From positions 17,856,001-17,920,000 of the forward strand of contig CM097884.1 of NCBI GenBank assembly GCA_044892505.1: 64,000 nt of DNA, in the 5' to 3' direction. Source of the DNA: Schmidtea nova (Eukaryota). The translations under genes and the position numbers were made by a program. The notes beneath the pieces are model-generated. The model saw nothing but the letters and a program-made list of their open reading frames with translations. It did not search any database and had not been told where the DNA came from. This document shows, in pieces, positions 1-25,934 of the stretch. Position 1 is the stretch's first letter, and every line of letters starts with the position of its first letter.

Positions 1-2143
1 AGAACTAATTACAAGAAACCTCTTTTTATGACATCGGCTAATCAACAATCTTTTGATTCTGCTACTATTTGTTATCTTTGTAAGAAAACTTTAGTACAAC
101 CAGTCAGAGACCATGATCATTACACTGGTGAATTTTTGGGAGCTGCTTGTAATTCTTGTAATCAATCCCGTCGTTTATACAAGTTTTTACCCGTTATTTT
201 TCATAATTTAAAGGGTTATGACTTGCACCATATTCTTAAATATGGTTTGGCTAATTTTTCAACTTGGAAAATTTCTTGCATTCCTACAACTAGTGAAAAA
301 TTCTTGACATTGTCTGCAAGGGTTGGTGATTTAACAATTAAATTCATCGATTCTTGTCAGTTTGTAAATTCTAGTTTAAATGACGCTGTTAAGACTCTTA
401 CTTGTTTGCCTTTGACTAGATCTGAATTCACCGGGACTATTGTTGACTGTAAGGGTATTTTTCCTTATGATTTTGCAACATCTTTAGAAATTCTTAACAA
501 CACTTATGAGTTGCCACCAATCTGGAAAGGTGTTAAACAAGATGAATATGACAAGGCATTGGTGATTTGGAGGGAATCCCAGTGTCAAACTCTTTGTGAC
601 TATATGATGGTCTACCTTAAACTGGATGTTTTTCTTCTTGCTGATTTCTTTCAACAGTTTAGGGCTAAATCTATAGCTCACAATAGACTTGAGCCTTTGA
701 ATTTCTTGGGGATTCCAGGTATGTCGTGGGCTTCTGCGCTTATTACCTTGGAAGAACCTATTGAGTTGCTCCAGGATATGGAGATTTATAATTTTTTCGA
801 AGGGGGGATCCGTGGTGGATTGACATTTGTCAACAAGCATCACGTAGTATCCTCCGAAACGACTGAACTTTTATATATTGACATAAATAATTTATACGGG
901 TGGGCTCTAAGTCAAAAATTACCTTATGGTGAATTTAGTTGGATCACAGATCAAAATAAATTTAATTAATTAATTAAATTAATGGATGCTGATTTGGCTA
1001 TTTTGACTTATGGCGTGACTTTTGAAGTGGATCTTGAAATCCCTTCAGAAATTCACGATAAATTAAATGATTTTCCGGTTGCAGCAGAGAAAATGTGTGC
1101 TCCCGGTTCAAAAGTTGAGAAGTTAATGCTTACGCATTATCCAAAGTTCAACTATGTTGTTCATTGGAGGCTTCTCAAGCTTTTTGTTTCTTTGGGTGTT
1201 AAAATAACACGAGTTCATCGGGCTGTTCAGTACAAACAGAAACCCATCTTTAAAAAATACATAGATACGAACACTGAACTTAGGGCAGCTTCTTCTACGG
1301 CTTTAGATAAAAACTATTACAAACTCTTGAATAATAGTCTTTATGGGAAAACGGTTGAAAATCTTAAAAAACGACTTAATTTACGACTTTGTAATTCAGC
1401 ATCAAAACTGATTACATATACTTCAAAACCTACCTTTAAAAAAAACTTATAGAATTGATGATGACCTAGTTTCTGTCTTGCTTAATAAGGACTCTGTGTG
1501 TTTAGATAGACCCAGCTACATTGGTCAAACTGTACTGGATTTATCTAAACTTAGGATGTACCAGCTGCAGTATGAAGAGTTACAAAAATATCGTAACGAA
1601 TTCAACTGCGAAATTAACATCGTTGCTGGTGACACCGATTCATTTTTTCTTGAGATTAGAAATTGTAAGCTTGATATTCTTTTACCGGCCATGATAAGAG
1701 ATAACTTACTTGACACTTCTAATTATGATCCGAATCACCCATTATACAGTAGGAACCTAGATTCCGTCATTGGTAAATTCAAAGACGAGAATAAAGGATT
1801 CAAGTATGATGAGTGGGTATTCCTTAGGCCAAAGTGTTACAGTCTTTTAGGTGATGAAGAGTGCATTAAGGCTAAGGGTATAACATTGAAGGATACTAAA
1901 CTGAATCATCAGTCGTATCTGGATTGTTATAATAATAATTCAATAGTTTCTGTTGATCAGTCGAGAATAGTTAGTAAGAATCATCAACTCTTTACTAATA
2001 AATCTTCTAAGATTGCCTTGACTAATCTTGACGACAAAAGACTTTGGGTGGGAAAAAATGTTAGTCTGGCTTATGGACATTATAAGGGAATTGATGTGGT
2101 TATGGGTGTGCGTGAAGATGCTGCTGATGAACAATTTGCCTGA
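1..2143 (+). pseudogene. polB: Protein-primed family B DNA polymerase (Polinton/adintovirus-like, copy A), open beyond the window start; one in-frame stop (967-969) and one +1 frameshift (A-run at about 1438-1445)
   Basis: EndoVII-like insert CYLC..RDHDHYTG..CNSCN; ExoII FHNLKGYD; ExoIII YLKLDV; motif A YIDINNLYG; motif B KLLNNSLYGK; motif C AGDTDS. ORFs 28-969 and 982-1452 share a frame; 1478-2143 is shifted. Confidence 0.93.
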
Positions 2144-2560
2144 AGATTTATTTAAATAAAGTTTTATTTTTAAATACTTTGTGTTTTTTGTTGTTTTTCT
2201 AGTTAATATTACTTTTTATTGTTGAACGTTAAATTCTGGTTATTTATATGTAAAAGATCTTGAATTTTAACCATTTTTAACCAAGTAAGGTTTTTTCATG
2301 TTAAATTTACCATAGAAGACCAATTTTTCATGTTTTTACTTTTTGACCCTTTTTTGTTCGCCATTGAATTCCCAGTAGATTGGTATAAAAATTATTTAAA
2401 TCCGAGCATTTTTGAAATTTTTGGGTAAAAATTTGAAAAAATTAATTTATTTTATATTTTTTGTAAAAATTATGAAAAAATAAATAAAAATTATTAAATT
2501 ACAGTATTATATCATCAATTGCGTAAGGGATTTCGTGTTATGTAAGAATTTATGTTTTTG

Positions 2561-2905
2561 TAAATAACTACGTAATAATTACGTAATAATTACGTAATAA
2601 TTATGTAATAATTGCATAATAATGACGTAATAATTACGTAATAGTTGCGTAACAATTATTTAATAATGACGTAATAGTTACGTAATAATGACGTAATAAT
2701 TACATAATAATGACGTGATAATTACGTAACAGTTGCGTAACAATTACGTAATAATGACGTAATAGTTACGTAATAATGCTGTAATAATTACGTAATAATT
2801 ACGTAACGATTACGTAACAGTTACGTAATAATATAAAAATACGTAATTTGGGGGTGGGTGGGGGGTGGGGGGGTTGGCAACTGTATAATTATTACGTAAT
2901 ATATA
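2561..2905. repeat. Subterminal tandem array of an 11-bp unit (ACGTAATAATT-like) with TTACGTAA/TGACGTAA cores
   Basis: About 24 imperfect 11-bp units read directly in 2561-2831, plus scattered copies to about 2900. Confidence 0.9.
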
Positions 2906-2953
2906 CAGTTTAGGGATAAATGGCTTGGCCCCGTGTCCTCACTATCCCCTACT
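2850..2953 (+). mobile_element. Right terminus of element A (G-tract, then ...CTATCCCCTACT; reads AGTAGG from the end)
   Basis: The same terminal sequence recurs at 19720-19772, and the two copies diverge immediately after CCCCTACT. 5'-AG/AGT termini are typical of Polintons. Confidence 0.75.
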
Positions 2954-4332
2954 ATTGATATAAATAATTTATATGGGTGGGCCTTAAGCCAACCCCTGCC
3001 TTGTGGTAATTTTGAGTGGGTCACTGATGACCAATTATTAAATAATATCGTTTGTGAGTGCACATCGGAAAATCTCGATACACTTCATTATGGTTACACC
3101 ATAGAAGTGGATTTGGAAATTCCGGCATCGATTCACGACAAACTGGATGATCTTCCAGTTGCCGCTGAAAAGATGTGTGCACCGGGATCCAAGGTTGAGA
3201 AGCTGTTGCTAACGCATCTTCCAAAGAAGAATTATGTTCTTCATTGGCGGCTTCTGCAACTATTTATTAAAATTGGTGTGAAGGTAACGCACATACATCG
3301 CGCTATTAAATTTACACAAAATAAAATCTTTTTTAATTACATAAAAATTAACACAGACTTACGAGCTGCATCAACAAATAAGCTCGATAAGAATTTTTAT
3401 AAATTATTAAATAATAGTCTCTACGGCAAAACCGTAGAGAACTTAAAAAAACGAATAAATTTACGATTGTGTAACTCGGCACAAAAACTGCTGACTTACA
3501 CGTCGAAAGCTAATTTTAAAAAAACTACCAAAATCGACAATGATCTCATCTCCGTATTGCTTCAGAAGGAATCAGTATGTTTGGATAGACCCAGCTACAT
3601 CGGACAAACCGTACTGGATTTATCCAAACTTCGTATGTACCAGCTGCAGTATGAAGAGTTACAAAAATATCGTAACGACTTCAACTGCGAAATTAACATC
3701 GTTGCTGATACTGATTCCTTCTTCTTGGAAATCAAAAATCTGCCTTTAAACACTCTTTTGACCGCCATGATTCGAGATAGGCTTTTGGATACTTCAAATT
3801 ACGACACTCATCATGCATTGTATAGTAGGACCCTTGATTCTGTGATTGGTAAATTTAAGGATGAGAATAAGGGTCTACTGTATGATGAGTGGGTTTTCTT
3901 AAGACCTAAGTGCTATAGTCTTATGGGAGACGAGGCCTGCATGAAAGCCAAGGGTATCTGTTTGAAAGATGCAGGTCTCACACACCAGTCTTACCTTGAC
4001 TGTTTTTTAAATGATAAAATATTTAATGTCCCCCAGTTCCGAATTACGAGCAAAAACCACCAACTTTTCAGTATTAAAAGCAATAAGAGAGCCTTATCTT
4101 GTAGGGATGATAAAAGGAACTGGGTGGATAAAAATAAAAGTTTGGCGTATGGTCATTATATGGGGGGTGACACCACTATATTTGTAGGTGATCGAGATGG
4201 AACAAACCAACAACAACAACAACAACAACAGATTCAACAACAGCTTCAACAACAACAACAACAACAAGGTCCCTCAGATGACCCATATGATTTTTATGAC
4301 CCGACGGCACGGGATTATTTTGGATAATGCGA

Positions 4333-4369
<37 letters not shown>

Positions 4370-4430
4370 CGACGGTGACAATGACAATCAGGATAATGAA
4401 AAAACAAAAAAAAAACAAAAAAAAATATAA
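2954..4430 (+). pseudogene. polB: 3' half of a second, related pPolB (copy B), starting abruptly in motif A; poly-Q then (after a probable +1 slip at about 4318-4321) poly-D C-terminal tail
   Basis: IDINNLYGWAL begins exactly after the element A terminus; KLLNNSLYGK; VADTDS (Gly of GDTDS missing). Colinear with copy A. Confidence 0.9.
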
Positions 4431-4516
4431 AAGATATAGAAAAAAATCAAAAAAAAAAGATTAAACCGAAAGATTAAACCGAAAGATTAAACCGAAAGAT
4501 ATGAGAACGTACAATC

Positions 4517-4532
4517 GGCCCTCTTCAGGGCC
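4517..4532 (+). terminator. Histone-mRNA-type 3' stem-loop 1 (GGCCCT-CTTC-AGGGCC, followed by ACAA)
   Basis: 6-bp stem and 4-nt loop fitting GGYYYU-YYUN-ARRRCC; about 86 nt after the acidic-tail stop. Function inferred. Confidence 0.6.
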
Positions 4533-4722
4533 ACAATTTATGATTGTATAAAAATATTAAATAATAAGTTTTAGAAAATTTAGCTGACCGAAATCAGAAA
4601 TGAAACAAATAATTACCGAAACCGAAAAAATAAAAAAATTAACAGATTACAGAAAACGAAAAGAAAAAACAGAAATCAAAAAGATCAAACAGAAAGCAGA
4701 TTCAAATTGGGAAAGTAATAAC

Positions 4723-4738
4723 GGTCCTCTTTAGGGCC
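4723..4738 (+). terminator. Histone-mRNA-type 3' stem-loop 2 (GGTCCT-CTTT-AGGGCC)
   Basis: Same 6+4+6 geometry with one G-U pair; shares the downstream motif TGATTGTATA with stem-loop 1. Confidence 0.55.
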
Positions 4739-4876
4739 TATACATTTTGATTGTATAATAAATTGCGCAATCAATTAAAACTATGGAATTATTTTTTAGT
4801 TTTTTTTTTGTTTAAAATTGTTCTTAGTTATTATTATTTTTTTTTTATAAGTTATTTTTATAAGTTATTTTCATTA

Positions 4877-5371
4877 NNNNNNNNNNNNNNNNNNNNNNNN
4901 NNNNNNNNNNNNNNNNNNNNNNNNNNNNNNNNNNNNNNNNNNNNNNNNNNNNNNNNNNNNNNNNNNNNNNNNNNNNNNNNNNNNNNNNNNNNNNNNNNNN
5001 NNNNNNNNNNNNNNNNNNNNNNNNNNNNNNNNNNNNNNNNNNNNNNNNNNNNNNNNNNNNNNNNNNNNNNNNNNNNNNNNNNNNNNNNNNNNNNNNNNNN
5101 NNNNNNNNNNNNNNNNNNNNNNNNNNNNNNNNNNNNNNNNNNNNNNNNNNNNNNNNNNNNNNNNNNNNNNNNNNNNNNNNNNNNNNNNNNNNNNNNNNNN
5201 NNNNNNNNNNNNNNNNNNNNNNNNNNNNNNNNNNNNNNNNNNNNNNNNNNNNNNNNNNNNNNNNNNNNNNNNNNNNNNNNNNNNNNNNNNNNNNNNNNNN
5301 NNNNNNNNNNNNNNNNNNNNNNNNNNNNNNNNNNNNNNNNNNNNNNNNNNNNNNNNNNNNNNNNNNNNNNN
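4877..5371. other. Assembly gap (N run)
   Basis: 495 N. Confidence 1.
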
Positions 5372-5398
5372 TTATAATTATTATTATTACAAGTTATT

Positions 5399-5730
5399 NN
5401 NNNNNNNNNNNNNNNNNNNNNNNNNNNNNNNNNNNNNNNNNNNNNNNNNNNNNNNNNNNNNNNNNNNNNNNNNNNNNNNNNNNNNNNNNNNNNNNNNNNN
5501 NNNNNNNNNNNNNNNNNNNNNNNNNNNNNNNNNNNNNNNNNNNNNNNNNNNNNNNNNNNNNNNNNNNNNNNNNNNNNNNNNNNNNNNNNNNNNNNNNNNN
5601 NNNNNNNNNNNNNNNNNNNNNNNNNNNNNNNNNNNNNNNNNNNNNNNNNNNNNNNNNNNNNNNNNNNNNNNNNNNNNNNNNNNNNNNNNNNNNNNNNNNN
5701 NNNNNNNNNNNNNNNNNNNNNNNNNNNNNN
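5399..5730. other. Assembly gap (N run)
   Basis: 332 N. Confidence 1.
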
Positions 5731-5990
5731 ACGTACACAACGATATATTTATAAATTGCATGTGTATTGCAATGTCTTTGTTCATGTTGCACGCGTGTTG
5801 CAAAGTCCTTGCACGTGTGTTGCAATGTCTTTGTTAACTTGCACGCATGTTGCAAAGTCTTTGTTTAGTTTGAAAGATAATAATAATAATTAAATAAAAA
5901 ACATTAGTAGCAGAACATTTAGTATCAGAACCCTGGAAGCAGAACATTGCGATCAGAACCCTGGAAGCAGAACCTCTTCTGTGATGGTTT
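5731..5990. repeat. Short imperfect tandem repeats (TTGCAAAGTCTTTGTT-like; about 27-bp TCAGAACCCTGGAAGCAGAAC)
   Basis: Read directly; the first motif recurs at about 7180-7245. Confidence 0.7.
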
Positions 5991-6212
5991 TGAAGTGCAA
6001 AAGCTTCATACTTGACAAATAATAATTAATTAAAAATGCACACATATAAAAATTTCTTTGTTTAGTTTGCACACCTGTTGTAAATATTTTTGATGACTCT
6101 AATTTTGTCTTATAAAAAAATTTGACTAAAAATAATTTGTCTTAAAAAAATTCGTCTTAAAAAATTTGTCTTAAAAAAATTTGTAAAAAAAAAATTTTTC
6201 AAAAAAAAAAAA

Positions 6213-6353
6213 TTTGGCCTGAAAAAAATAAATTTTTGAAAAAAAAATTTGGCGCAAAAAAAATTTTTGAAAAAAAAATTTGGCGCGAAAAAAATTTTGA
6301 AAAAAAAATTTGGCGCGAAAAAAAAATTTTGAAAAAAAAAATTTGGCGCGAAA
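6213..6353. promoter_or_regulatory. Tandem array of E2F-consensus sites (TTTGGCGCGAAA) in A/T-tract spacers
   Basis: 3 perfect TTTGGCGCGAAA, 1 TTTGGCGCAAAA and 1 degenerate copy, period about 30-32 bp. TTTSSCGC is the E2F consensus; binding is not shown. Confidence 0.55.
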
Positions 6354-6374
6354 AAAAATTTTGAAAAAAAAAAT

Positions 6375-6544
6375 TATGACTCATCGATGACTCATCAAAA
6401 AAAAAGTATGACTCATCGATGCCTCATCGATGACTCATCAAAAAAAATTTCTACCCCCCGGGGGGAGGGGGGTCTTTCTTCTTTTTTTCCCGCCCACGCA
6501 TGAGTCATAATGTCTTTGTTCCCGGCTCCACACATCTACCTACT
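6375..6544 (+). mobile_element. Putative right terminus of element B: ATGACTCAT cluster, G6AG6 tract, ...TCTTTGTTCCCGGCTCC..CCTACT
   Basis: Same layout as 2850-2953; the last 35 or so bases are similar to 8085-8118. Confidence 0.6.
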
Positions 6545-6997
6545 GTTCATAAAATGCAAAATCTTTTCAGTAAATTGAGTCCAATTAAAATGAAACCAGT
6601 TAGGAACGATAACAAATCAACTCAAAAAAAATTTGATTTACGACCGGTTCAGATGTTTCACGATTACCAAATGTTTTTCTTGGTAAACTAAATCTCTTTC
6701 AAGGTCCCAAATCCGGTAAAGCTTTCGACTTCGCAATATTCCAACTTGATTGGTCAGATTTATAAAGAAGATGTTGTTGCAATCAATAAAGTGTTGACGA
6801 AAATCAACAAGAAATTATCTTGCAATGAAACTATATTCATCAACAACAGGAACACCGAATTTCATGATGCATTTCAATCAGTTGAATATACGGATAATGA
6901 AAATTGGTTTATTGATATATCCATCCAAGGATATAAAATCGATCCAAAAGAATCAATGTCTCCAATTTGGAAGATAAAAAGCGCAAGAATTGCATAG
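6545..6997 (+). pseudogene. Fragment of an unknown small element ORF (in-frame stop at 6689-6691), possibly an OB-fold ssDNA-binding protein
   Basis: ORFs 6500-6691 and 6746-6997 are in the same frame. C-terminal DISIQGYKIDPKESMSPIWKIKSARI loosely recalls T7 gp2.5-like viral SSB ends. Confidence 0.3.
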
Positions 6998-7256
6998 TTG
7001 GAATAACATTGTTGTCATATATATATGTGTATTTATTAATAAATGTTGATTAATTCTCACTTTGTGTTTTTGAAAAAATGTTTTGTAAAATTTTATGTTT
7101 TTTAAAAAATTTTAAGTTTTTTATGTTTTTGAATTTTTGACCTTAAAAATGTTAAAATTCCCTAAAAATTAGTCTTTGTTTCTTTGCATTCACTTTGCAA
7201 AGTCTTTGTTAATTTGCACGTGCATTGCTATATCTTTGTTAATATTTGTTTTTGTT

Positions 7257-7529
7257 GATGAGTCATACTGATGAGTCATACCAATGAATCATACCGATGA
7301 GTCATACTGATGCGTCATATTGATGAGTCATACTGATGAGTCATACTGATGAATCATACTGATGCGTCATATTGATGAGTCATACTGATGAGTCATATTG
7401 ATGAGTCATACTGATGCGTCATATTGATGAGTCATACTGATGAGTCATGTAGATGAGTCATGTAGATGAGTCATGTAGATGAGTCATACCAATGAGTCAT
7501 CCAGATAAATCATACCGATGAGTCATTAG
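7257..7529. repeat. Tandem array of a 13-bp unit GATGAGTCATACT (AP-1/TRE core TGAGTCA)
   Basis: 21 units counted, 15 with a perfect TGAGTCA. Confidence 0.92.
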
Positions 7530-7549
7530 GAAAACAATTTAATCTTCAA

Positions 7550-7709
7550 TGGTATGACCATTATACTCACCCTTCAATTACCTTTTGTTTGATATGTATA
7601 TTATAAGGTTTGAAAATGGTTGAAGGTTTTGAACTGTCGAAGGTTAAGGATCATCCATACACCTTCGAGGGTATCCCATCTTACTTACCTCCCAATTACC
7701 TTTTGTTTG

Positions 7710-7742
<33 letters not shown>

Positions 7743-7815
7743 GGATTGTAAAAGGTTGAAGGTTTTTGACCCTTGAAGGTTAAGGACCCTCCATACACCT
7801 TCGAGGGTATGACCA
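7550..7815. repeat. Imperfect direct dimer of about 130 bp, with a (TA)n expansion in the second unit
   Basis: CAATTACCTTTTGTTTGATAT...GGTTGAAGGTTTT...CCATACACCTTCGAGGGTAT occurs twice. Confidence 0.8.
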
Positions 7816-7899
7816 TTGTATAGACCTCTCCAAGACCTTTCGAATGATACCCTTGTTTGAAAGTTTGACCTTATTTGACCCTTGAGAATTTAAATTTAA

Positions 7900-8118
7900 A
7901 ATTTAAATTTGAAATGAGTCATCGATGACGTCATAAAATTCAAATTTGAAATGAGTCATCGATGGTGTGTGTGTAAAAAAAAAATTTTATGACTCATCGT
8001 CTGTGTGTGTAAAAAAAAATAGGGGGGGTTGCAAAAAAAAGGGGGGAGGGGTATGTTCTTTGTTACGTCATCGATTACGTAATAGTTCTTTGTTCCCGGC
8101 TCCTCATGTCTGCCTACT
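7900..8118 (+). mobile_element. Putative right terminus of a third element (C): AP-1/CRE sites, G-tracts, ...CCTACT
   Basis: TCTTTGTTCCCGGCTCCTCATGTCTGCCTACT matches 6513-6544; G-tract ends about 67 nt before the end. Confidence 0.6.
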
Positions 8119-8930
8119 CATATATACAAAAACAAATGAAATGATTAAATCATTCAATTCAAGGTTTCTAAGATTAGAATCACACGATGGACCATGTTAT
8201 TAGAAAGAGAAGTGCAGAGTTGAAATAAAATCATAATGTAATATCTGGTATATTTACTCATTTGAAATCTTTAGATCCAATAATTAAAAAAAGTTCTATA
8301 GGGTCAATTCATGTTGTAGTAAAGATTATTCAAACACCTTGTATTGTATTTAATAATATTAACTTCTTAAGGGGTTTATTTCGTCAAACGAAATAAAAAG
8401 TTTATAATTTTTTACCAAAATAAAGTTATAAACCCAAACACAAAACAGGTCCAAACACGTACTGCACAAGCACTGATCCGATAAATGTAAGTATTTATAT
8501 TGTAAGTATTTATACACAATTTAACTTTATGCGAATATATTCGTCTTATGCGTTTTGTAATGCATATGTTGATGACGTATATATCCGTCATAGCCACTTA
8601 AGAGGCTAATAGTGTTTTGAAATTGTTTATAAAAGATCATTTGAAAGAACCTATAGGCATAAAGATTGGTGATATTGTTATATATGGGTTGACATCAACT
8701 GGTGTATATTTTAATCGAAATAAATCAGATACCAAATTTCATTTCAAGAATATTAGAATTGAATTTTCAATTGGTGCTGTAGAATATATTGATCTTTTAT
8801 ATTATGAAAAATTAATTGATAATCAATCTATTCAAACTGCTTTGAAAATATATATGGACACATGTTAAAACAAAGAGAACATGTTTTACTAATAAAAGAT
8901 AACAAAGTATATTAAATTACAAATACTAAA

Positions 8931-9636
8931 ATGAATGAAGTAAAAGAAGACTTTATTACTCCAGAAGTACATTATTCAAATTTACAAAAGCTTTACAAAC
9001 AAACAAAGCTTTATTGAAAATGTAAACAATAATGACAACAACAAACCAAGTGCTCCAATAGAAAGTAATTTATATGAAATGTACAAACAAAGCAAAATTA
9101 ACGAATTTACAAGAGAACAAAAGAAACTTCAAGATTTTTTATTCCATTATAAAAAATTAAAACGTAGATGGACTAGAACCGATTCTTCAATTAAAATAGC
9201 TGGTATTTCTTTGGGTTTTATTCTTACTTGTTGTTCTGTTGTCATTGCTCCTTTGAGTGCTTTTGGTTTTGGAACTGTTATAATTATTCTAAGTTCAGTT
9301 ACAGATGGAATAAGTGCCCTAGATTTATTTTTAACAGAAGCAATTTCTATTGGTTTAACAAGTAAAAAGAAAAGACATTATAGAGAAGTATGTTTGGAAT
9401 TAGAACTTGGAATAAATAAATTATATCTATATCAAAACAAAGCCATGAGTGGTGACAATTTAACAAATGAAGAAATAGAAACTAGTAAAATTATTATTGA
9501 ACAAGTAAACAAAATAAAATATTCAAAAGAAGTAGATAAAGAAGTTGGAATGATTAAAAAAGAAGTAAAGAAAGATTTGGCTGATAAAATACAAAAAGAT
9601 TATAAATCAAAATTACAAAAATTAAATGAGATTTGA
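8931..9636 (+). pseudogene. Element-associated membrane/coiled-coil protein with a PSAP motif, frameshifted by an 11-bp duplication near 9000
   Basis: ORF 9079-9636 has a long hydrophobic segment (IAGISLGFILTCCSVVIAPLSAFGFGTVIIILSSV) then KKKRH and a coiled coil; KPSAP lies in frame upstream. Confidence 0.55.
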
Positions 9637-9661
9637 TGTTTATAAAATAATAATTATAAAA

Positions 9662-9778
9662 ATGGATCGTCAGAGCGGTCAATATTTTTGCAATTATTGT
9701 GATTCAATTTTTAATGAATATGGTGAATATTTTCAACACAAAACATCAATTGAACATGAAAATAATCTTGATGAATAA
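9662..9778 (+). CDS. 38-aa U1/matrin-type C2H2 zinc-finger ORF
   Basis: Hand translation MDRQSGQYFCNYCDSIFNEYGEYFQHKTSIEHENNLDE gives C-x2-C-x12-H-x5-H; too short for the ORF track. Confidence 0.55.
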   Translation: MDRQSGQYFCNYCDSIFNEYGEYFQHKTSIEHENNLDE

Positions 9779-9879
9779 TTGGAAACAAGAAATATTAAAA
9801 AAATAGAAATAGATTTTAATAAAATATTAAATATGTAAATCATTCAGTAGATCTTTGTAACTACAAATTAATAATATAA

Positions 9880-10270
9880 TTTTGTTGATTTATTTCGTTT
9901 TCATTTGGTAATCTACTACCCTTTTTTTATATTTTCTTCACGCGTTGTAAATCTCAAAATTTTCCAATTTATTGCTTTTTAATATTTTCTTTTGTTAAAT
10001 CAAATTTTGAAAGTGGAATAAAATGATCTATTTCAATTAGTCCTTTATAATCTTTTGTAATAAAATATGGTTTTGAAAATTCTAACCATTCATGTGTTTC
10101 TTTAGAATGTGGAAGTTTTCTTAATTCATCTACTATTCTTGCATTTGGTGTGTTTTTAGCCATCGTTTTGTATTTTCATTTACACATTTTTTACAATTAG
10201 TATTTTTCAAAACGAAATTATCAAGCGATTTTATTTCTTTACATTTGCTACATTTTTTGAAATATTTTTT
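9880..10270 (-). pseudogene. HNH endonuclease with an N-terminal CxxC...CxxC zinc ribbon, frameshifted
   Basis: Fragments KKCSKCKEIKSLDNF..CKKC, IEIDHFIPLSKFDLT and AINWKILRFTTREENIKKG. Confidence 0.65.
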
Positions 10271-10272
10271 TT

Positions 10273-13200
10273 TTAATTTGGAGAGGGTGTAACTTTGTTG
10301 GTAAATTGATAATAATTCAATTCACATGTTTTTGTTTCTTCATAATGTAGATACATCATTCCGTCTTCATCTGGTGGTTGTCTTTTTGATTTATTTAAAT
10401 CATGTTTGAATGTTTTGGGTTGTGCTTCTTCATCAGTAGGTTTCTAACACCTTTTATAAAATCATGACTCCAAGGTTTGGTTGTTATTGACTCTACCTCT
10501 TCTTTACGGTATAATTTGAAAAATTCTTTTGAATATAAAATGTCAGAGTTGTATCCTTTAAAAGTTTTCTTTTCAATTAATATTCCATTATTTAAAACTA
10601 TATTATATTTAATTTTTGGTGCTTGAAATAATCCATATACAATTCCACCATCTCCATAATCATTTTTTCCTTGACCTAAATTACTTCCTACATGTCCAGC
10701 TTTATCTAGTTCATTATAATATATTTTTGAAATATATGTTGAATCTGTGTCTATAATATTCAATTGGTTTCTTGTAAGCATCTATCTCTAGTAAAAAATT
10801 ATTCATAATTCTTCTTGAATGTCCTAATATAAAAGATCCTAAATGTATTAGCACTTCCGAAATTTGTTTTTGGATCTACAACATCAATTTTCTCAGTTTC
10901 AATTTTTTTTCAACAATCCATTTCTTGTTTCCAATTTCAAATCTTGATAAAATCATGTCATCATAATTATCTCGTAATGTTCGTTCACTCCAAATATGCA
11001 TTTCTGTATCACCATATTTTTGAACTGTTTTGCCATATAATGAATTCATCAACAACTTCATTAATTCATCACCAACTGGATCTATATTATTTTTATCACC
11101 TTGATGTTTAATACCATCATTTTCTTGATATGGTTTTCCTTTATATTTTAATCTTATGTTAAATAATAAATTAATATATGAAGTAAACGGAGAAACTTTA
11201 TAATCTTTTTGATATATTATTCCTTCAGATATTCTTGTAATTTTTCCGACTGTTCTAACAATTTCATGGATGTCTACACTGTTTAACCAATCCTCTATAT
11301 AACCATTTCTAAATTTATTAACTTTACGTTTATCAACCCCTTCTTTAATTGGAACATGTTGTAAAAATTCTCTTGTGAATAATAATATCCAACTTTAAAG
11401 AATCCTGCTCTTGGTCTAAAGTTTTGAGTATTAAATAGATTTAATATTTCTATTTCTTCAGATTGTTTAAAAACTCGAGCCATTTCTACTTTTGGATATT
11501 CAGAATTTTCATCTTCCATTGCTGACGGATATAAACTTGTTGCATCAAAAGCCATTAAAAATCTTCATCAAACCATTCTAAATTCATTACTTTATTTCTT
11601 GATTCTCAAAACATGTTTGTTGTGTTATTCTTGGTTATTTTTTCTGGATTCTTTTCACACCATTCAAAAATACTAGCAAAATTACCAAATAAACTATAAT
11701 TATCTCTTTCAATAATTTTTTTTGTCTTGCTTAGAATATTCTTTTGTTTTATATTTTTGTAATAATTTTAATCCAGAATTTTGTTCTAATATTTCTAATG
11801 CTGGATATACAATTAAATAAAATAATTCTTGATTAAATATGAAATATCAACATAATTTGGGCTTTGCCTATCTTTATGTGGTAAATCTAAATATTCGTTT
11901 AATATTGTCTCAATGTTTTCCATTTTTGGGATTCAAATGTATTAATGTTTGCAGAAACTCGACCACCTTTTACACTTTTTCTTATAAACCATCGAACATT
12001 AGGATCAACATATGTTGATATTTTTTCTCGTTCATCAATTGGTTTTTTTAATTCTTGTTCATTATGATGTTTTACCCAACCTTTTAATGCTAATGATGGT
12101 GATGACATGCATGAAGACATGTTTTGTCCAACCTATTCTTCCATTATTGACGAATATTGTATAATAATTATTGCTAGTGATATAGCATCTAATTTTAAAT
12201 ATGGTTCCCATTGTGATTTGAAATCCAAATAATTTTCTAAAGTTATATTATCATGTTCTAAATTTGATTTACTAAATTCTATTGGAAGTTTAAATGCTTT
12301 ACATATATTTTCCAAACTATTTTTTATATGATTAAGAGAACATTTAAATATTATCTTTTGAAAAAATCTATTACCTATTGGATTTTTAATGTTTGGATGT
12401 TTTTCTTTAAATTTATCCTTTATTATCTTTTGATTATATTCTGATGTGTAAATATTTTTAAATTGAAGGTTAATTATACCTTGTGTTGTTTTTAAAATTT
12501 TATATGGAACAATTCCATGTTCTTGCAAACTAAATAATTATCAAATTTACTTCCATTATGTGCAATTAAATAAGCATTTGTTTGATTAGGAATATTTCCT
12601 ATGTATTTAAACATTTCAATAATTCAATCAACTACTATAAATATTTTAGCTTTTTCTTTTAATATTTCTTGTTGTATTTTGTCTTGTTTTAATTCTAATT
12701 TTTCACCCAATACTTTTTTAACATCTTTTAAAGATATTAATCCGGCCGCCCATTGTTTAAAATAACAATCTGTTGTATTTGGTGAAGCTTCTAAATCCCA
12801 AGCAAACGTTTCATCTTCAGATATTTTTTATACGAGTTTTGTATTCTGAAACTTGTACAATATTTTCAGAATTACAATCAACATGTAGTTTAATATAATT
12901 TTTATTTACCTCTTTTATTCCTTCTTTTTATAATATTTATCAATTAAGCAGAAATGATTTTCATACAAGTATAAAACCATGTTGAATTTACATGATTGAA
13001 CATTAGTTTTGGGATATAAATGTCTATCTTTTTCACTATAATATAAAATATTAATATTTTGACTTTTACAAAAACTAGGTATTATAGCTAAAGTCATAAT
13101 TCCAGAACGATAATCCCTTTCATTTTTATACAAATATTCTTCGTATTTTTCCACCATTATTATTGAAATACATGATATTATATTTCCAATATGACAATTT

Positions 13201-14053
13201 TTTCCACTTTAACTTTTTTTTCAAAATTAGCTTCTAATTCTCCTCTTCCACATTCTCAATATGAATTTGAAATCAAACACCATTTCTTTTGTTTAAATAA
13301 AATACTCCAATTATCAGGGTTTTCATGATTGGTAAAATAACCATCTAAATCACAATATTCTATATGCAACTCTTGTGTTATAAATTTAATTATTTGTTTT
13401 GGTGATTTTTTCCATCTCTCTAGCAATAATTTCTATTACACATTTTATAAAACAATTTCCATCTGATGGAATATAACAATATTCTCCTTTGTATTCATTA
13501 ATTTTGTATTTAAAATTTACTCCTTTTCCAAAATCACTTCTTGTTAATCTTTTAAAATGATCTTTAACAAATCTTTTCACTCCAGTAAATTTATATTCCT
13601 CCATGTCTGATGTTTCATTAAATGATTCTCTATAACCTTGTAACATTTTTATAGTTATTAAATTTAAATCTATTACTTTAATTGTTGTTTTTGTTCTACT
13701 ATTCCATAATTCATCAAAGACACTTACCATATATCCTCATTGAATTCTTTTATCAACATCATCAAGAACTTTGGAAAAATCTTCATCATAATATCTTATT
13801 ATTTTAATTAGGTTTGGGCTGTTTGTTTTCTCTACTTGTGTTTTTGTCTTTTTCTTTTCTTTTCTATTTCTTTTTTTCTTTCTTCTGTCTTAGTTATTAA
13901 TTCTTTAAATATTTTTGCCATTAATTTTTCTTGTAAGAGTTGTTTATTTTCATCTTTTAAACGTTTAAGTTCATCTTGTAATCGTTTATTTTCATCTAGA
14001 ATTTTTTTCCATTGCAAGGAACTCCTTAATTTAGAAATCGGTTTTGCGGCCAT
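10273..14053 (-). pseudogene. polB: Second-lineage protein-primed PolB polyprotein (element D) with an N-terminal OTU-like protease; many frameshifts
   Basis: Motifs in order on the minus strand: CYIPSDGNCF and LYENHFCL (OTU Cys/His), FAWDLEA (ExoI), IAHNGSKFD (ExoII), YLKLDAI (ExoIII), AFDATSLYP (A), KLLMNSLYGK (B), IDTDS (C). Confidence 0.88.
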
Positions 14054-14121
14054 TTTTTAAGAATAAAATTTTAATTATGCTTTTTGCCCACAAATAATAA
14101 AAAGTTTTTCGTGTAAATCAC

Positions 14122-14289
14122 AGTAGTATATATCGAAATTGGGTATCCTGAAAACCTTAAAATCTTGCCCGTATAAACTGAGTGAAATGAACGTTTGAGG
14201 GCGAACCCGCCCGCAAAAGTGAATGAGCGAATGTTTACGGGCAATATTTTGGGGTTTGCGGTATATCCAACTTCGTATATAATACTACT
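14122..14289. repeat. 168-bp imperfect palindrome with AGTAGT...ACTACT ends
   Basis: Arms of about 56 bp (AGTAGTATATATCGAAATTGGG...TTGCCCGTATAAAC and GTTTACGGGCAA...ATACTACT); no TSD seen. Confidence 0.8.
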
Positions 14290-14639
14290 TAATAAAATTC
14301 TTTAAAACTAGTTATAGCACTCAGGAAAAAATCATCGTTCGGTCAATAACACCATATATGCTTAATTACCGCACTGAGAAAAATAATTCCTTAACTTATG
14401 AGATCTTATGGGATTAATTACATTACTTGGAAACATGGGCGCCCGCAAAAAATTTTCTAGGGGATGGGGCAAAATATTTTTAGTTATGTTTTAATGTAGT
14501 TTTAATTTACTGTAGCGTATTTGTATGGTGAACGAACGGACAGGACACTGTAGTAATGGAGGGCATACTGTAGTAACAAATTTTTTATTAACACATTTTA
14601 TGTATATAACAAAAAATATTACAATATAAATTTAAAATA

Positions 14640-15980
14640 AAATTTATTCTTTAAACAATAACTGGAGTCGTCTGTTATCGGTACCAAACATAATTCAAAG
14701 AAATGTAATATGATTCTGAACGTTAATTATTTTGAACAAACATTGCGCTTGGCCAAGCCACTACTCCTCATATAGCCAGGTATGAGACGAAGCGCTTTGG
14801 ATGTTTGCACTCACTTCGATGAAAATATGGATCCGAACACTGAAAGGACTCCAACGAACTGATGATTCACCAAAGCGACTAATGACGGTACAACGACTAG
14901 GTGGACCATCATCAGACGTATGGAAATAGTTTTAATGAGAAAAAATATAAATATGCATATAAATAAATAAGTGAATAACAACATAATAATTTTAGTTTGT
15001 GAGAAAATGTGATCAAAGTAAAAATAAAAATTTAAAAAGAAATATTTTAATTCTTAAAAAAAATAATAAATACATATTTAACCATATAATAACACATTAC
15101 CAAACTTGAAAATCAATCAAAACACCTACGGCAGGGTAACAAAAGCATGATTTGCTAGCCTGCATGACAGAAAAATTCAAGATAATTACTCTTCTGCTTG
15201 GTTCGAAAGAGGTTGGGAATCGATTGAATCGTGCCCATCTAGAATCACGAGTACGTATCAAAACTTCTGGATTCTGCAAGTCGGAAATCAATAGATTGTT
15301 TCTGGAACTTTTTGAGGGGTTCGCTTTTATCGATTTTTACCAGTTGATTTTGTAAAAATTTCACTCTCGTAGAAATTTCTCAAAATTTTCGAGCAAATTC
15401 TGATAACTTCCCTTTTGATGGAGGTATATATAGCTGTTCAAACTGTTATTTTTGTTTATGCATTAAAACAAATTGTTTTAGAAGGAATTTTTGATTCTTT
15501 CGAAATTAGTTTTAATAATTTTAGACAAAATTGAATTATTATTTTTGCATAAAATTTTAAATAAACTTTAAATAATTTATTTTTGATCTAAAATTTTATT
15601 TTTAAATCAAAGTTTTTCTAATTTAGTTTAATTTAACAAAATCTTTAACTAAAACAATTTTCTTTCATATTTCTTTGAATTTTTAAGCTAAAATCGAAAA
15701 TTTCCTCCAAAACTTTTCCTAGTTTGTTGTCTTATTACATAATTGATGTTTTTATGTTATATGTGTTTTTCACGTGTATACTTAATGCGCTTTTGTTCAT
15801 TTTAATTTTTTAAACGTGTATTAATTATTTATTTATGGCTTTTATTATTATTGTGTTTTACTTGGTGTTTTTCTCGATCATATTTTAAGTTTACTTCGTG
15901 CGCGCTCTCTACATGCTGTATTACCGCGCTATTCAAACTAAATTCAGTTTATGTCCAACAAAATGTAATTAAAAACTTTA
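14640..15980 (-). repeat. Old non-coding interspersed repeat family, copy R (part B)
   Basis: Reverse-complement blocks GTAGAGAGCGCGC, GAACAATTTGTTTT and AGTGGCTTGGCCAAG match 53380-54565 and 61860-63064. Confidence 0.7.
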
Positions 15981-15989
15981 ATTTTATCC

Positions 15990-18900
15990 GATATTTTAAT
16001 CAATAAATTAAATGATGTTATTAATGAGATGGGGTTTGTCAAAATACAATTTTATGTTGACGTAGAGTTTGAAAAAGATGGTGAATTTCAATCATTTATC
16101 ATTTTAAACTCTGCAAGACCAATTAGTGATTCCTTTTTTAGATGAAGGTATCACCCTTTTAAATGAAGTAATTGGGTTATCAACAAACTCAACGAAATCC
16201 ATTTTGTTGTAATTAAATTTGCCCAAATTAGCCGATTAATTGGCAGAGGTCATATAAATACTCCTCGATCTTTAGATGCGAAACATTGTACTGTAAATGT
16301 AATTAATTCTGATGATTTCTGTTTCATTTATAGCATTTTGGCTATTTTGAAATATGATGAGGTAGATAATAATATAAATCGAGCAAATAATTATAATATT
16401 AATGATCTTGACTTTGACCATTCTGAAATGCCCATGAGACTTTGTAATATTCCAAAGTTTGAGGCTAAAAACACTGGACTTTCTATTGTTGTTTTATCTT
16501 ATGATGAAGATGCTCTTCTTGATACTTTGGCAAACCTTGAAGTTTTTAAATACCCTTGTCTTGACATTATCCACAGGTCGAAAGTTATTTGGTGGTACTC
16601 CTATTAACTTGATTTTGTTGGAAAGTGGTGATGCATATCATTATTTTGCAGTCACCGATCTTGATAGGCTTTTGAATCTTGATGATCGTACAATTTCCAA
16701 TACTCGCATTCAAAGTATATGGTGTCATCGATGCTTGAATGGATTTCGAAAACAGGAAGCATTCGATTGTCATCAACAGTTGTGTGCTAAAAATCAATTA
16801 GGCACAACTCTTTATACTCTGCCTAGAAATAAAAATTTGAAATTTAGTAATTGGGGCAAAACAATTACTCTACCTTTTGTTGTTTACGCCGATTTTGAAG
16901 CTATCTTATCTACTGATGATAAGTACTTTCGAAGACATGTCCCAATCTCTGCCGATCTTTTACTTGTAAATAATTTCACTGGCGAAAAAAGTTACAAGAG
17001 TTTCTTAGGTCTTGATTGCGTGACTAATTTTTTTACTGAAATTAGTTACTTGTCAGAATTTATTGTTTATCCCTTTTATAAAAATAATTTCAAGAAACCT
17101 TTTTTTTATGACAGCGGCTAATCAACAATCTTTTGCTTCTGCTACTATTTTTTATCTTTGTAAGAATACTTTAGTAAAACCAGTCAGAGACCATGATCAC
17201 TACACTGGAGACTTTTTGGGTGCAACATGTAATTCTTGTATCAAATCCCGTCGGTTATACAAAATTTTACCCGTTATTTTCTATAATTTTAAGGGATATG
17301 ACTTGTACCATATCTGTTAAATATGGATTGGCTAATTTTAAAAATGGGAAAATTTGTTTTATTACAACAACTAGTGAAAAATTCTTAACTTTATCTGTAA
17401 GAGTCGGTGATTTAACCATTAAATTCATCGATTCTTGTCAGTTTATTAATTCTAGCTTAAATGAAGTTGTTAAAACACTTACTTGTTTGCTTTTGACTAG
17501 ATATGAATTCTCAGGGAGTATTGTTGATTGTAAAGGTATTTTTTCCTTATAATTTTTCATCATCTTTAGAAATTCTTAACAACACTTATGAGTTACCACC
17601 AATTTGGGAAGGTGTTACCCAAACCGAATATGACAAGGTATTGGTGATTTGGAGGGAATCAAAGTGTGAAACTGTGTGACTATATGATGGTCTACCTTAA
17701 ACTGGATGTTTTTCTTCTTGCTGATCTCTTTCAACAGTTTAGGGCAAAATCTATAGCTCACAATTGACTTGAGCCTTTGAATTTTTTGTGGATTCCAGGT
17801 ATGTCGTGGGCTTCTGCGCTTATTACCTCGGATGAACCTATTGAGTTGCTCCAGGATATGGAGATTTATAATTTTTTCGAAGGGGGGATCCGTGGTGATT
17901 TTACATTTGTCAACAAGCACCATCTAGTATCCTCCGAAATGACTGAACTTTTATATATTGACGTAAATAATTTATATGGGTGTTCTTTAGGCCAAAAAGT
18001 ACCTTATGGTGAGTTTAATTGGATCACAGATCAAACTAAATTTAATAAATAAATTAAATTAATGGATGCTGATTTAGCTATTTTAACTTATGGCGTGACT
18101 TTTGAAGTGGATCTTGAAATTCCTTCAGAAATACATGATAAATTAAATGATTTCCCGGTTGCAGCAGAGAAAATGTGTGCTCCGGGTTCAAAGGTTGAGA
18201 AGTTAATGCTTACGCATTATCCAAAATTCAACTATGTTGTTCATTGGAGGCTTCTTAAGCTTTTTATTTCTTTGGGTGTCAAAATAACTAGAGTTCATCG
18301 GGCTGTTCAGTATAAACAGAAACCCATTTTAAAAAATTATATTGACACAAACACTAGACTTATGACAGCTTCTTCTACGGCTTAGTTAAGAACTATAACA
18401 AAATCTTGAATAAAAGTTTTTATAGGAAAACTGTTGAAAATCTTAAGAAAAGACTATTTTACGACTATATAATTCAGCATCAAAACTGATTACATATACT
18501 TCAAAACCTACTTTTCGAAAAACTTATAGGATTGATGATGACCTAATTTCTATCTTGTTTAATAAGGACTCTGTGTGTTTAGATAGACCCAGCTACATTG
18601 GGCTAGGTGTGTCTGGGTTTGTGTTTCTTAGGCCAAAGTGTTACAATCTTTAGGTGATAAAGAGTGCATTAGGGCTAAGGTTATAACATTGAATGATACT
18701 GAATTGAATCATCAGTCGTACCTGGATTGTTATAATGATAATTAAATAGTTTCTGTTGATCAGTCGAGAATAGTTAGTGAGAATCATCAACTCTTTACTA
18801 CTAAATCTTCTAAGATCGCTTTGGCTAATCTTAATGACAAAAGACTTTGGGTGGGAAAAAATGTTAGTCTGGTCTATGGATATTATAATGGAATTGATAT

Positions 18901-19772
18901 GGTTATGGGGGTGTGAGAAGATGCTAATGAACCCGATAAAGAATTTGCCTGAAGATCCGAAGATTTATTTAAATAAAGATTTTTTTTAAAAATACTTTGT
19001 GTTTTTATATGTGTTTTTTATTGTTGAGCGTTAAATTCTGATTATTTTGATGTAAAAATTATTGAATTTTGACCATCTCTACCCAAGTAAGGTTAATTCG
19101 TGTAAAATTGATCGGAGTTGACCAATTTTTCCTATTTTCATTTTTGACACTTTTTTGTTCGCCGTTCAATTCTCAGTAGATTGATATAAAAATTATTGAA
19201 ATCTGAGCATTTTTGAAAATTTTGGAATTTCCCTTTTTACGAGTAAAATTTGAACGGATGAGTTCAATTTTTCATGTTTTTACTTTTTGACCTTTTTTTG
19301 TTCGCCATTCAATTCTCAGTAGATTGGTATAAAAATTATTTGATTTTAAGCATTTCTGAAATTCTTTGGAAAAATATTGAAAAAATTAATTAATTTTATA
19401 TTTTCTATAAAAAATTATCAAAAAATAAATAAAAATTATTAAATTTCAGTATTACATTATTAATCACGTAATAATCAAGCTATTTATGTAATTTTAAAAA
19501 GTGTTTTGTAATGATCACGAAATTTGTAAATCTTTATATAATAAATGAAGGATTATATAATGAATACGTGACGATTTCATAACATATGATGTATAACATA
19601 ATAATCGTGAAATAATGTATTACTCATTGATTATGTAACGGTTATGTAGCATAAATAAAGTATTACATCCTGATTACATAACGCATAAAATATTATGAAA
19701 CTTCCGGGGGACATATAATATATACAGTTTAAGGATATATGTCTTGTGCTTGTCCGCTCACTATCCCCTACT
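15990..19772 (+). mobile_element. polB: 5'-truncated, decayed copy (A2) of element A: vOTU, C2H2, Exo with EndoVII insert, Pol, then subterminal region and terminus
   Basis: NSDDFCFIYSIL and YHYFAV (vOTU); WCHRCLNGF..H; VYADFEA. Bases 17100-18990 are closely similar to 1-2160. About 290 bp covering motif C is deleted near 18600. Terminus CTATCCCCTACT. Confidence 0.88.
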
Positions 19773-21411: not shown

Positions 21412-21521
21412 AGTGATGTTCATTAATTACCTTTGTTTAAATAATATCAAGTGGCACTGTTTTAAAAATATATATTTTAATTTTTTAAATTGTTAATATG
21501 CATTATGAAGAGATTGTAACT
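21412..21521 (+). repeat. 5' LTR (AGT...ACT)
   Basis: 4 mismatches to 25825-25934. Confidence 0.93.
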
Positions 21522-21554
21522 GGCTACCACGCCGAATAAATTGAACCGATTCAC

Positions 21555-22714
21555 GTGGTGACAAGAAATCAGCATAGAAAGATGATTATGGAATCTTTGC
21601 CTAAACAGGCAAAAGACATTTTGAATTTTAATGTCAGAAGATTCGACGGCCGAAGCACGGTAGAAGCAGAGAAATGGCTCAAGGATATTGAATATTGGAC
21701 GCTACTAAATGATCTAGATTTAGTAAGTATTTTTGATTTATTATTGTCTGAAGAGGTATCTATTCTCTGGAAAGAATTTAAGGACATTGCCACAACGAAT
21801 GAAAAAGCTCGTGAATGGTTTAATGAAACATTTACCAAAAAGAAGTCCATTATGGATAAGATTTGTGACTTATCAGCAATAAAACAAATTAACGATGAAA
21901 GATTTATCACAATCGAGATACGAGTAAAGAAACTTGTTGACGAAGTTTTTGACTGTGGAATTTCAAAAGAAAATATTGTTGAACTGATTTTGTGCAGCAG
22001 AGTTCGGAACGACCGTTTGAAAGAAAATATTTCAACGAAGGCTAATATCTCGAGAGAAGAAATTAGAAATTTAGCAAAAGTATATGAGGCACGAGAAGGC
22101 TACGATACAAAAGAACGATTTGAAGAAGTTCAGGCAGTAGTGAAATCAACCTATGCAAACGTTGCTCAAGATAAACAGAAGCAATGGACTAAAAAACATC
22201 TTTAAATAATAGAATGTATTCGAGTCGTCAACCAGAAATAAGTTATCAAAATAGAAATGAAAGAAGCGAAAGACAAATTGATAGAGTGAAACCCGTGGTA
22301 GAACAATATAATGAGAGGACAACTATGGACCGTAGACCACCACCGTTAGTTTCAATGAAACATATCGCAAGGAAAGTTTATAATAGATGTTGTGGTCTAC
22401 CTGAACCAGCAGAAGAAAGGTTAAGATCTGGTAAATGCTTTTGTTGTGGACAAAGTGACCATATGCGATTTGAGTGTCCTTTGAAGGACAAATGCTTAAT
22501 ATGCGGTAAAGAAGGTCATTCATTTAGAAATTGCAATTTGTTAGTGAAATCAAGAAGTAATACACAAAGACTGGAACGAAGAGTGTACTGTATACACGAA
22601 GAAGACGATGACAGATCAGATGAATTGATAGCCCCAGTCATACATAATGTTGAGACTCAAAAAAATCAAGAAGTCCCTGTTGTCTACATTTCGTCAGTAG
22701 GGTCGAGACAGTAG
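21555..22714 (+). pseudogene. gag: Gag with two CCHC zinc knuckles, frameshifted at about 22200
   Basis: CFCCGQSDHMRFEC and CLICGKEGHSFRNC. Confidence 0.88.
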
Positions 22715-25700: not shown

Positions 25701-25810
25701 TGAAGGACCTAACAAAATTTTAAAATTCTTATCACTAAGACAAGTTGAATTACAATTTCTAAACTCAATCAAATCAAGAAGAATTGAATGGCTGAAGAGA
25801 TTCAAAGAAA
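22660..25810 (+). pseudogene. pol: Pol (protease, RT, RNase H, integrase), several frameshifts
   Basis: LWNSGA (catalytic Asp replaced by Asn); YLDD; LDTDAS; integrase H/C-C and ILTDRG...NGLAER. Confidence 0.93.
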
Positions 25811-25824
25811 ATGAAGAGGAGGAG

Positions 25825-25934
25825 AGTGATGTTCAATAATTACCTTTGTTTAAATAATATCAAGTGGCACTGTTTTAAAAATATATATTTTAATTTGTTA
25901 AATTGTTAGTATGCATTATAAAGAGATTGTAACT
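25825..25934 (+). repeat. 3' LTR
   Basis: Preceded by the polypurine tract and followed by TSD GGTAA. Confidence 0.93.

Follow-up and report, generated by a model that had tools for sequence, protein, structure and literature searches.

The stretch of DNA analyzed here, called the window throughout, is 64,000 nucleotides long and stems from Schmidtea nova (NCBI GenBank assembly GCA_044892505.1, contig CM097884.1, positions 17,856,001 to 17,920,000 of the forward strand). Its left part lies within a nest of Polintons (also called Mavericks), virus-like mobile elements that are copied by a protein-primed DNA polymerase (pPolB, the product of polB) and inserted by an integrase with a 6-bp stagger. 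The nest comprises six elements, i.e., five nested insertions (A, B, C, E and H) and their outermost host G, with A in B, H in E, both B and E in C, and C in G. This four-level nest is genuine. With 120 kb of upstream sequence included, each of the five insertions has a pair of terminal inverted repeats (TIRs) and a flanking target-site duplication (TSD). The assembly is AT-rich and 1.25 Gb in size; for anything upstream of the window we use C3 coordinates, and ORF stands for open reading frame.

C3:17,843,221 (12,779 bases upstream of the window) to window 2953: element A, genes on the + strand, 15,733 bp.
Window 1..2143, + strand: 3′ part of the pPolB gene of A, interrupted by a stop (around 969) and by a change of frame (around 1412-1452).
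Window 1588..2953: right TIR of A, ~1.37 kb, 93.6% identical to the left TIR; holds the polB 3′ end, an 11-bp array and the G-tract.
Window 2954..2959: TSD of A, ATTGAT, equal to the six bases before the left terminus of A; sits in motif A of the B polB.
C3:17,828,883 to window 6544: element B, genes on the + strand, 17.9 kb without A.
Window 2954..4327, + strand: 3′ half of the pPolB gene of B, of which the 5′ half lies upstream of A.
Window 5756..6544: right TIR of B, ~0.8 kb, 96.1% identical to the left TIR.
Window 6545..6550: TSD of B, GTTCAT, with identical copies at either end of the element; splits a 147-aa ORF within one TIR of C.
C3:17,782,460 to window 8118: element C, genes on the - strand, 16.4 kb without B and E.
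Window 6545..8118: outer part of a TIR of C, 94.5% identical to the other TIR; ORF remnant at 6545-6997, 13-bp array at 7256-7526.
Window 8119..8124: TSD of C, CATATA; the left copy is CATTTA (5/6 match).
C3:17,784,717-17,816,301: element E, genes on the + strand, in a TAA run after the C polB, 15.1 kb net of its insert.
C3:17,796,200-17,812,663: palindrome H, within the E polB; TSD GACGTG exact.
Window 8119..14050, - strand: host element G, with polB fragments at 10395-13736 (PF03175, E 2.4e-10).

The original prediction, made from the letters of the window, had placed four element ends with the hexamer CCTACT at 2953, 6544, 8118 and 19772, each 62-80 nt after a G-tract and mostly preceded by motif arrays. 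All four are present. Counted from the end of the last G-run, they follow at 80, 72, 67 and 62 nt, respectively, and arrays precede three of the four (11-bp at 2563-2832, ~32-bp at 6173-6375 and 13-bp at 7256-7526). The hexamer is weak on its own, with 18 matches against 10.3 expected and 3 of 100 shuffles reaching 18. The ends at 2953, 6544 and 8118 are true termini, as many genomic copies stop at the same base while their flanks differ. The left TIRs that had been predicted upstream were found there, and A, B, C and E have AGTAGG or AGTAGA as termini. All TIRs begin with AGTAG; they are 0.8-1.7 kb long and 93.6-96.1% identical, and they carry genes, in that the repeat of A doubles the 3′ end of polB and the 147-aa ORF is present twice by means of that of C. 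The shared orientation of the ends, which had been pointed out, is uninformative, since the two TIRs of a pair read alike; the genes of C lie on the - strand and those of A, B and E on the + strand.

The paired TIRs and TSDs place A inside the polymerase of B and B inside C, as had been predicted. The end at 2953 adjoins polB motif A, which reads IDINNLY from 2954 (PF03175, E 5.8e-11, in the 3′ half of the B gene), and the end at 6544 adjoins an ORF that is 5′-truncated from 6545 and has an intact copy in the other TIR of C. Of the TSDs that had been proposed, ATTGAT and GTTCAT are exact and CATATA has one mismatch. For C, the empty site is seen in 11 of 11 relatives of G, which run contiguously across the insertion point with a single 6-mer; for B, it is the other TIR of C, where the 147-aa gene is uninterrupted. 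An uninterrupted 16.1-kb C-family copy, 98.5% alike, is additionally present on contig C1. The TSD of E (TAATAA) lies within a TAA run or microsatellite and is uninformative by itself. The matching TSDs span intervals of 15.7, 33.7, 81.7, 31.6 and 16.5 kb, and beyond the inserts the split genes continue where expected. Twelve other paired ends were compared; 11 are flanked by exact 6-bp TSDs and one is offset by three extra terminal bases. Among the public contigs over 6300-8400, one spans 8118 without differences, with just 26 letters on one side, and contigs of one run reach 6545 from the upstream sequence of C itself, which is the empty form.

A, B, C and E represent four families, the 3′ halves of their polB genes being 69-74% identical. 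G is an older, distant Polinton lineage; it is taken as such on account of its PF03175 polB and of the double-jelly-roll-like capsid gene in a relative of G (PF21738, E 7e-18). A 168-bp imperfect hairpin with AGTAGT/ACTACT borders lies at the end of G (window 14122-14289) and may be a mini-element or the terminus of G; no TSD was seen at it. In or beside the left part of G there is a RING-finger ORF (L028:4465-4887; PF13920, E 6e-9). Two older remnants adjoin the nest, and a further fragment lies upstream of F.

Window 15969..19772, + strand: D, the decayed right half of an A-like element, 88-90% identical to the A polB, with 11 lesions per 1000 aa.
L030-L028 (G000:C3:17,759,979-17,777,777): F, an older B-like Polinton cut off after the ATPase gene, with a Penelope-like insertion in its polB.

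The end at 19772 had been listed alongside the other three. The end itself exists, but it belongs to D, for which no left terminus was found in 100 kb upstream; D adjoins the nest and stands outside its proven part. The right end of F was likewise searched for and not found. A, B, C and E are young, with 0-0.9 lesions per 1000 aa compared to 4-11 in F and D, and E-family copies are 98.5-100% alike over an internal stretch of E. Another small nest occurs at L270-L271 (~9662-16834), where a 7.2-kb element with a mini-A at each end and a different polB inside adjoins an H-type end and an A-family polB.

On the basis of their gene set, TIRs and 6-bp TSDs, A, B, C and E are Polintons/Mavericks as these are delimited in PMC8097293 and PMC6431247. 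Besides pPolB (tblastn homologs in A, C and E), they encode an rve integrase (PF00665, E 2.8e-8 in A), an A32-like packaging ATPase (PF04665, E 9.9e-7) and an adenain-like cysteine protease (PF00770, E 8.1e-6 in B; homologs in A, C, E and F). The capsid is, judging from its predicted structure, a double-jelly-roll major capsid protein; the model has a pLDDT of 91 and a pTM of 0.88 and its Foldseek matches are iridovirus, PBCV-1 and mavirus capsids (best E 2.5e-16). ORFs of 340-348 aa at the position expected for the penton (the single-jelly-roll minor capsid protein) have no Pfam match. An N-terminal OTU domain, which together with a PF03175 PolB characterizes Alpha adintoviruses (PMC8502044), had no match in the Pfam scans, no profile-profile search having been made. 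The net lengths of 15.7 (A), 17.9 (B), 16.4 (C) and 15.1 kb (E) fit the 15-25 kb of Polintons. In all four families a TBP-like gene (PF00352, E 1.9e-13) lies beside the ATPase (L022:9048-9485, - strand, with homologs in B, C and E). The integrase is split at one common place in A, B, C and E by an AT-rich GT-AG intron candidate of 40-44 nt (e.g., L021 ~1180-1225), and the protease of these elements has a conserved AT-rich GT-AG candidate of at least 39 nt. The public contigs over the integrase end at the intron candidate and are uninformative on splicing. The candidates may mean that this lineage has adapted to transcription in the nucleus. Lastly, four of four scanned integrases have a weak chromodomain match at the C-terminus (E 4e-5 to 9e-4, below the Pfam cut-off); the nearest solved chains for this region are HP1/Swi6 chromodomains, without reaching significance (E 0.14-0.4).

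These elements thus share with described Polintons/Mavericks (adintoviruses) the size, here 15-18 kb, the AGTAG start of the TIRs, the 6-bp TSD, the core genes and the double-jelly-roll capsid (PMC8097293, PMC8502044 and PMC6431247), and the PF03175 match agrees with the 'Alpha' PolB as defined in PMC8502044. They differ from known Polintons in the TBP-like gene and in the AGTAGG/AGTAGA termini of A, B, C and E, which replace (AGT)2. In PMC8097293, intact vertebrate Mavericks are described as intronless, whereas GT-AG candidates of 39-44 nt are found here in the integrase and protease; the same paper reports a mean of 22 copies per vertebrate genome and at most 287, compared to ~14,000-19,000 element equivalents here, a figure that is derived from gene counts and has a wide error.

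The genome share of the Polinton clade was sampled directly in 60 random 10-kb stretches (600 kb) over the three large contigs, excluding small contigs and the terminal 31 Mb of C2 and 5 Mb of C1. Polinton sequence covers 21.5% of these 600 kb with a first library and 23.0% with an extended one (bootstrap 15.5-31.0%), while an estimate from protein matches alone gives 15.4%; under a strict rule, 23.3% of sampled windows are Polinton (bootstrap 15.6-31.7%). The clade hence occupies between about one-fifth and one-quarter of this genome. Genome size is likewise determined in large part by Polinton expansion in Trichomonas vaginalis, about one-third of whose genome is Maverick (PMC10120064), and in Dugesia, for which a Maverick expansion is reported with no percentage in the passages covered (bioRxiv 10.64898/2025.12.11.693146). 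The present case is an animal genome with a sampled share of 15-31%, approaching Trichomonas, whereas copy numbers reported for Polintons of animals lie in the tens to hundreds (PMC8097293). This saturation of a 1.25-Gb genome by mostly young copies of several concurrent families offers many dated insertions from which target choice can be measured, as well as a system in which to seek virions and replication intermediates, unseen for animal Mavericks.

The nesting of A in B and of B in C had been taken to suggest preferential insertion into relatives or into a repeatedly used landing site. Five families therefore supplied 140 ends (the best-scoring 20-30 per family), the outer flanks of which were classed by the same rule as the background. 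Thirty of the 140 were dropped, i.e., seven from the nest itself, 12 partner ends, one small-contig duplicate, eight palindrome centers, one truncated end and one tandem duplicate; among the 110 retained, one (L250) may be a palindrome center. Independent ends lie in Polinton DNA in 22 of these 110 cases (20%, confidence interval 13-29%), compared to a background of 23.3% (binomial p=0.50). The family counts are 2/13 for A, 9/28 for B, 4/22 for C, 4/24 for H and 3/23 for E. Preferential targeting of relatives is therefore not supported. The insertions into relatives fall in polB, capsid, ATPase, penton-like and TIR regions, and several hosts are 97-99% like nest members. The idea of a reused landing site fared no better, as the targets are diverse: no 6-mer is used more than three times in 110, and the other listed flanks repeat none of the sites of the nest. 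A weak central pyrimidine-purine bias is present (71 and 72 of 110, p about 0.003 and 0.002), together with a slight excess of microsatellites among the targets (9/110 versus 4%, p=0.04).

Several narrower forms of targeting were considered and rejected. Youth of the host is not selected, with 4.6 lesions per 1000 aa in hosts versus 3.8 in random Polinton windows (p=0.13; medians 2.0 for 17 hosts and 0 for 67 random windows). A regional hot zone was rejected with low power (5/20 point samples within 0.5 Mb versus 60/240), and the polB motif A target is absent from the other examined flanks. An apparent CTCCCG hot spot in 6 of 20 A-end loci proved to be the internal center of one palindromic family, the centers of which were removed from the count.

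Random sequential insertion up to a share of 23% was simulated, yielding per genome 9.3 clusters of at least five elements, 1.6 clusters of at least six and 10.7 elements at four levels deep; over shares of 16-31%, the number of clusters of at least six ranges from 0.2 to 11. A six-element nest is rare yet expected about once per genome, and the window was chosen for being striking. Most probably, the nest arose while several families, which by now take up some 20-25% of the genome, recently expanded in parallel and integrated near-randomly. Each step would have been made by a retroviral-type integrase acting on a linear, polB-copied element, with a 6-bp staggered cut and a weak central pyrimidine-purine preference. 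Through Polinton saturation, relatives would account for about one-fifth of the available targets, and about one in five new insertions would fall in a relative. Every nest would in turn be a larger target for further insertions, and a few deep stacks per genome would result without targeting. Nesting as such is then largely explained as a product of saturation, and the elements at this locus, which are of a known kind, are in an unusual state.

Some observations weigh against near-random integration. Firstly, counting F, D and the further fragment, there are about nine units in ~120 kb, while the simulation gives 0.1 (0-0.5) nested clusters of at least eight, adjacency being outside the model. 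Secondly, the Polinton share in the past was lower than the present background, so that an enrichment of up to ~1.8-fold is possible; the background was estimated from 60 stretches, and the best-scoring ends of each family were used. Thirdly, young Tc1 elements lie in Polinton DNA in only one of 30 cases (p=0.008 versus background; Fisher p=0.03 versus Polinton ends). Fourthly, the integrases have the weak, sub-cut-off chromodomain match described above. The Tc1/IS630-like family in question (that of L028:2324-4263; L166-L195) is very young, with 100% identity at 40 of 40 scored ends.

Some of these points bear on a mild, chromatin-guided preference, by which a C-terminal chromodomain of the integrase would steer or admit integration into silenced chromatin that holds earlier Polintons, giving up to a ~2-fold excess of nesting and fat-tailed clusters. 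Guidance by chromodomains is known from long terminal repeat (LTR) retrotransposons, for which Gao et al. (2008) are reported to have described it. We regard such a preference as unlikely here, although it accommodates the chromodomain matches, the ~nine units within ~120 kb and the contrast between Tc1 (1/30) plus a mariner family (1/13) and the Polintons (22/110; pooled Fisher p=0.024). There is no excess over background (20% versus 23%), the age of the hosts is ordinary and the neighborhood is at background. A Penelope control, with ill-defined ends and microsatellite targets, has 4/30 insertions in Polinton DNA and is indistinguishable from background (p=0.28), and the gap with Tc1 is equally explicable by avoidance on the part of Tc1 itself. 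Polintons do not avoid one another where Tc1 does, which may reflect either steering or indifference.

Far less probable is a repeatedly used landing site or a locus trap, such as a sequence-specific target or a piRNA-cluster-like sink. It would fit the very high local density with its sharp edges (Polinton sequence amounts to 557 of 20,000 bp on the adjoining upstream side and to 0 of 44,200 bp on the downstream side) and the fact that two of the five nested insertions struck polB genes. The five targets, however, differ (ATTGAT, GTTCAT, CATATA, TAATAA and GACGTG) and lie in different genes or positions, the genome-wide targets are diverse (top 6-mer 3/110), and polB makes up about a quarter of an element, so that two strikes in five are unremarkable. 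Misassembly of repeats can practically be dismissed: the repeats are high in copy number and none of the listed public contigs formally bridges a junction, but a collapse would not produce TSDs that match over 15.7-81.7 kb and split genes that resume as expected.

Other cases are described in which integrated virus-like elements harbor mobile elements. Ngaro retrotransposons are reported within endogenous mavirus-like elements (EMALEs), with an affinity for them (PMC8547959), retrotransposons within Polinton-like viruses (PLVs) of cryptophytes (PMC12220804), and insect polintons with transposable element cargo as well as mobile polintons that lack polB (bioRxiv 10.1101/2025.02.07.637071). In these virophages, PLVs and polintons the inserted elements are retroelements, whereas here they are Polintons in Polintons, at the rate of chance. 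The passages covered of the Trichomonas (PMC10120064) and Dugesia (10.64898/2025.12.11.693146) studies contain no test of nesting against a null. In the literature covered, to which most subscription papers and Repbase did not belong, neither a targeting test of Polintons in Polintons nor polB-only palindromes were found; in the main text of PMC10748475, the terms 'palindrom', 'nested' and 'nonautonomous' are absent.

H, the insertion in the polB of E, belongs to a group of palindromic offshoots, 13-16 kb in length and dispersed in the genome, that have Polinton termini and 6-bp TSDs. It is a 16.5-kb palindrome with arms that are 99.4% alike, and a polB 3′ fragment is its sole recognized gene. 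Two other copies of its family are 14.3 kb (palindromic through the center) and 13.4 kb long. A second family, pal-A, was found via the repeated CTCCCG flank. Four of its copies (13.8-14.3 kb) have inverted arms, each with a polB ORF of 1238-1239 aa in which motifs A, B and C are present (one checked), around a center of 0.7-1.1 kb that is a mini-element bearing both A-type termini. Of two more copies, one (13.9 kb) is without polB and one has a truncated arm. The TSDs of pal-A are AAGCGC, TCTGCC, AATATT, ATCTAG and an AT run. The third family, pal-E, has the same build around an E-type mini-element, with copies of 13.5, 14.2 and 15.4 kb and as TSDs TTCATA, GGCGAA and an AAT run.

L264-L267: loci of the H family.
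L258-L263, L256-L257 and L366-L367: loci of pal-A, e.g., G000:C1:127,678,255-127,692,465.
L348-L353: loci of pal-E.
G000:C1:511,616,325-511,623,614 (L364-L365): polB-only monomer of 7,290 bp, flanked by a separate TSD, AAAATG.

No integrase, ATPase or capsid gene was found in the palindromes, by tblastn for pal-A and H and from ORF lists for pal-E; polB stands alone. The palindromes were examined in 20-kb stretches, which put much longer forms beyond reach. With a pal-A arm as query there were 2,558 first-look candidates, and 17 of 20 matched elements have a palindromic center, the other three being single-arm; in random stretches, a palindrome center was seen in one of 60. The 7,290-bp monomer consists of mini-element, arm, polB and terminus, i.e., half of a pal-A dimer. 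In the eight of 11 copies undisturbed by tandem repeats, the arms diverge by 0-0.33% within a copy versus 0.18-4% between copies; for two near-identical copies there is no gap between the two measures.

From their sequence, the palindromes appear to be non-autonomous, polymerase-only replicons that were integrated in trans and likely depend on full elements to move. The dimer would form when the inverted repeat at the center folds back on itself. Small linear DNA viruses are known to have snap-back defective genomes and, as replicative forms, head-to-head dimers. With these, with the polintons lacking polB and with a PLV without integrase that was found integrated (PMC11296320), H, pal-A and pal-E have in common that they are non-autonomous and presumably mobilized in trans, and that the arms are nearly identical within a copy. 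They differ in keeping polB twice, in having lost the integrase and virion genes, in their central mini-element with two termini of the autonomous type and in being fixed in the chromosome with TSDs. It is conceivable, if on balance doubtful, that a satellite ecology exists, in which a 7.3-kb monomer and a head-to-head dimer of 13-16 kb around a captured mini-element are copied by fold-back, integrated in trans by the autonomous elements and possibly packaged near unit length. They would then be defective-interfering genomes or fossils of replication intermediates, derived from a Polintovirus of animals that has come to occupy a fifth of the DNA of its host. The integrated 7,290-bp monomer implies that unit length is not required. 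Polymerase-only monomers and dimers bear on how Polintons replicate and on whether they are parasitized, and a satellite ecology, if true, would make the unobserved replication cycle of Polintons testable from sequence.

Beyond the nest, Tc1, mariner, Gypsy and Penelope-like elements occur in the window or upstream of it; together with a bZIP host gene, they suggest an animal genome. The remaining features of the window are the following.

Window 21412-25945: decayed Gypsy-like LTR element.
Window 28128-29268: piggyBac-like transposase remnant.
Window 30676-31326: bZIP host exon.
Window 31964-34760: complex tandem array beside the bZIP exon, with periods of 20, 178, 243, 422 and 600.
Window 48802-51594: mariner element with a non-LTR fragment inside.

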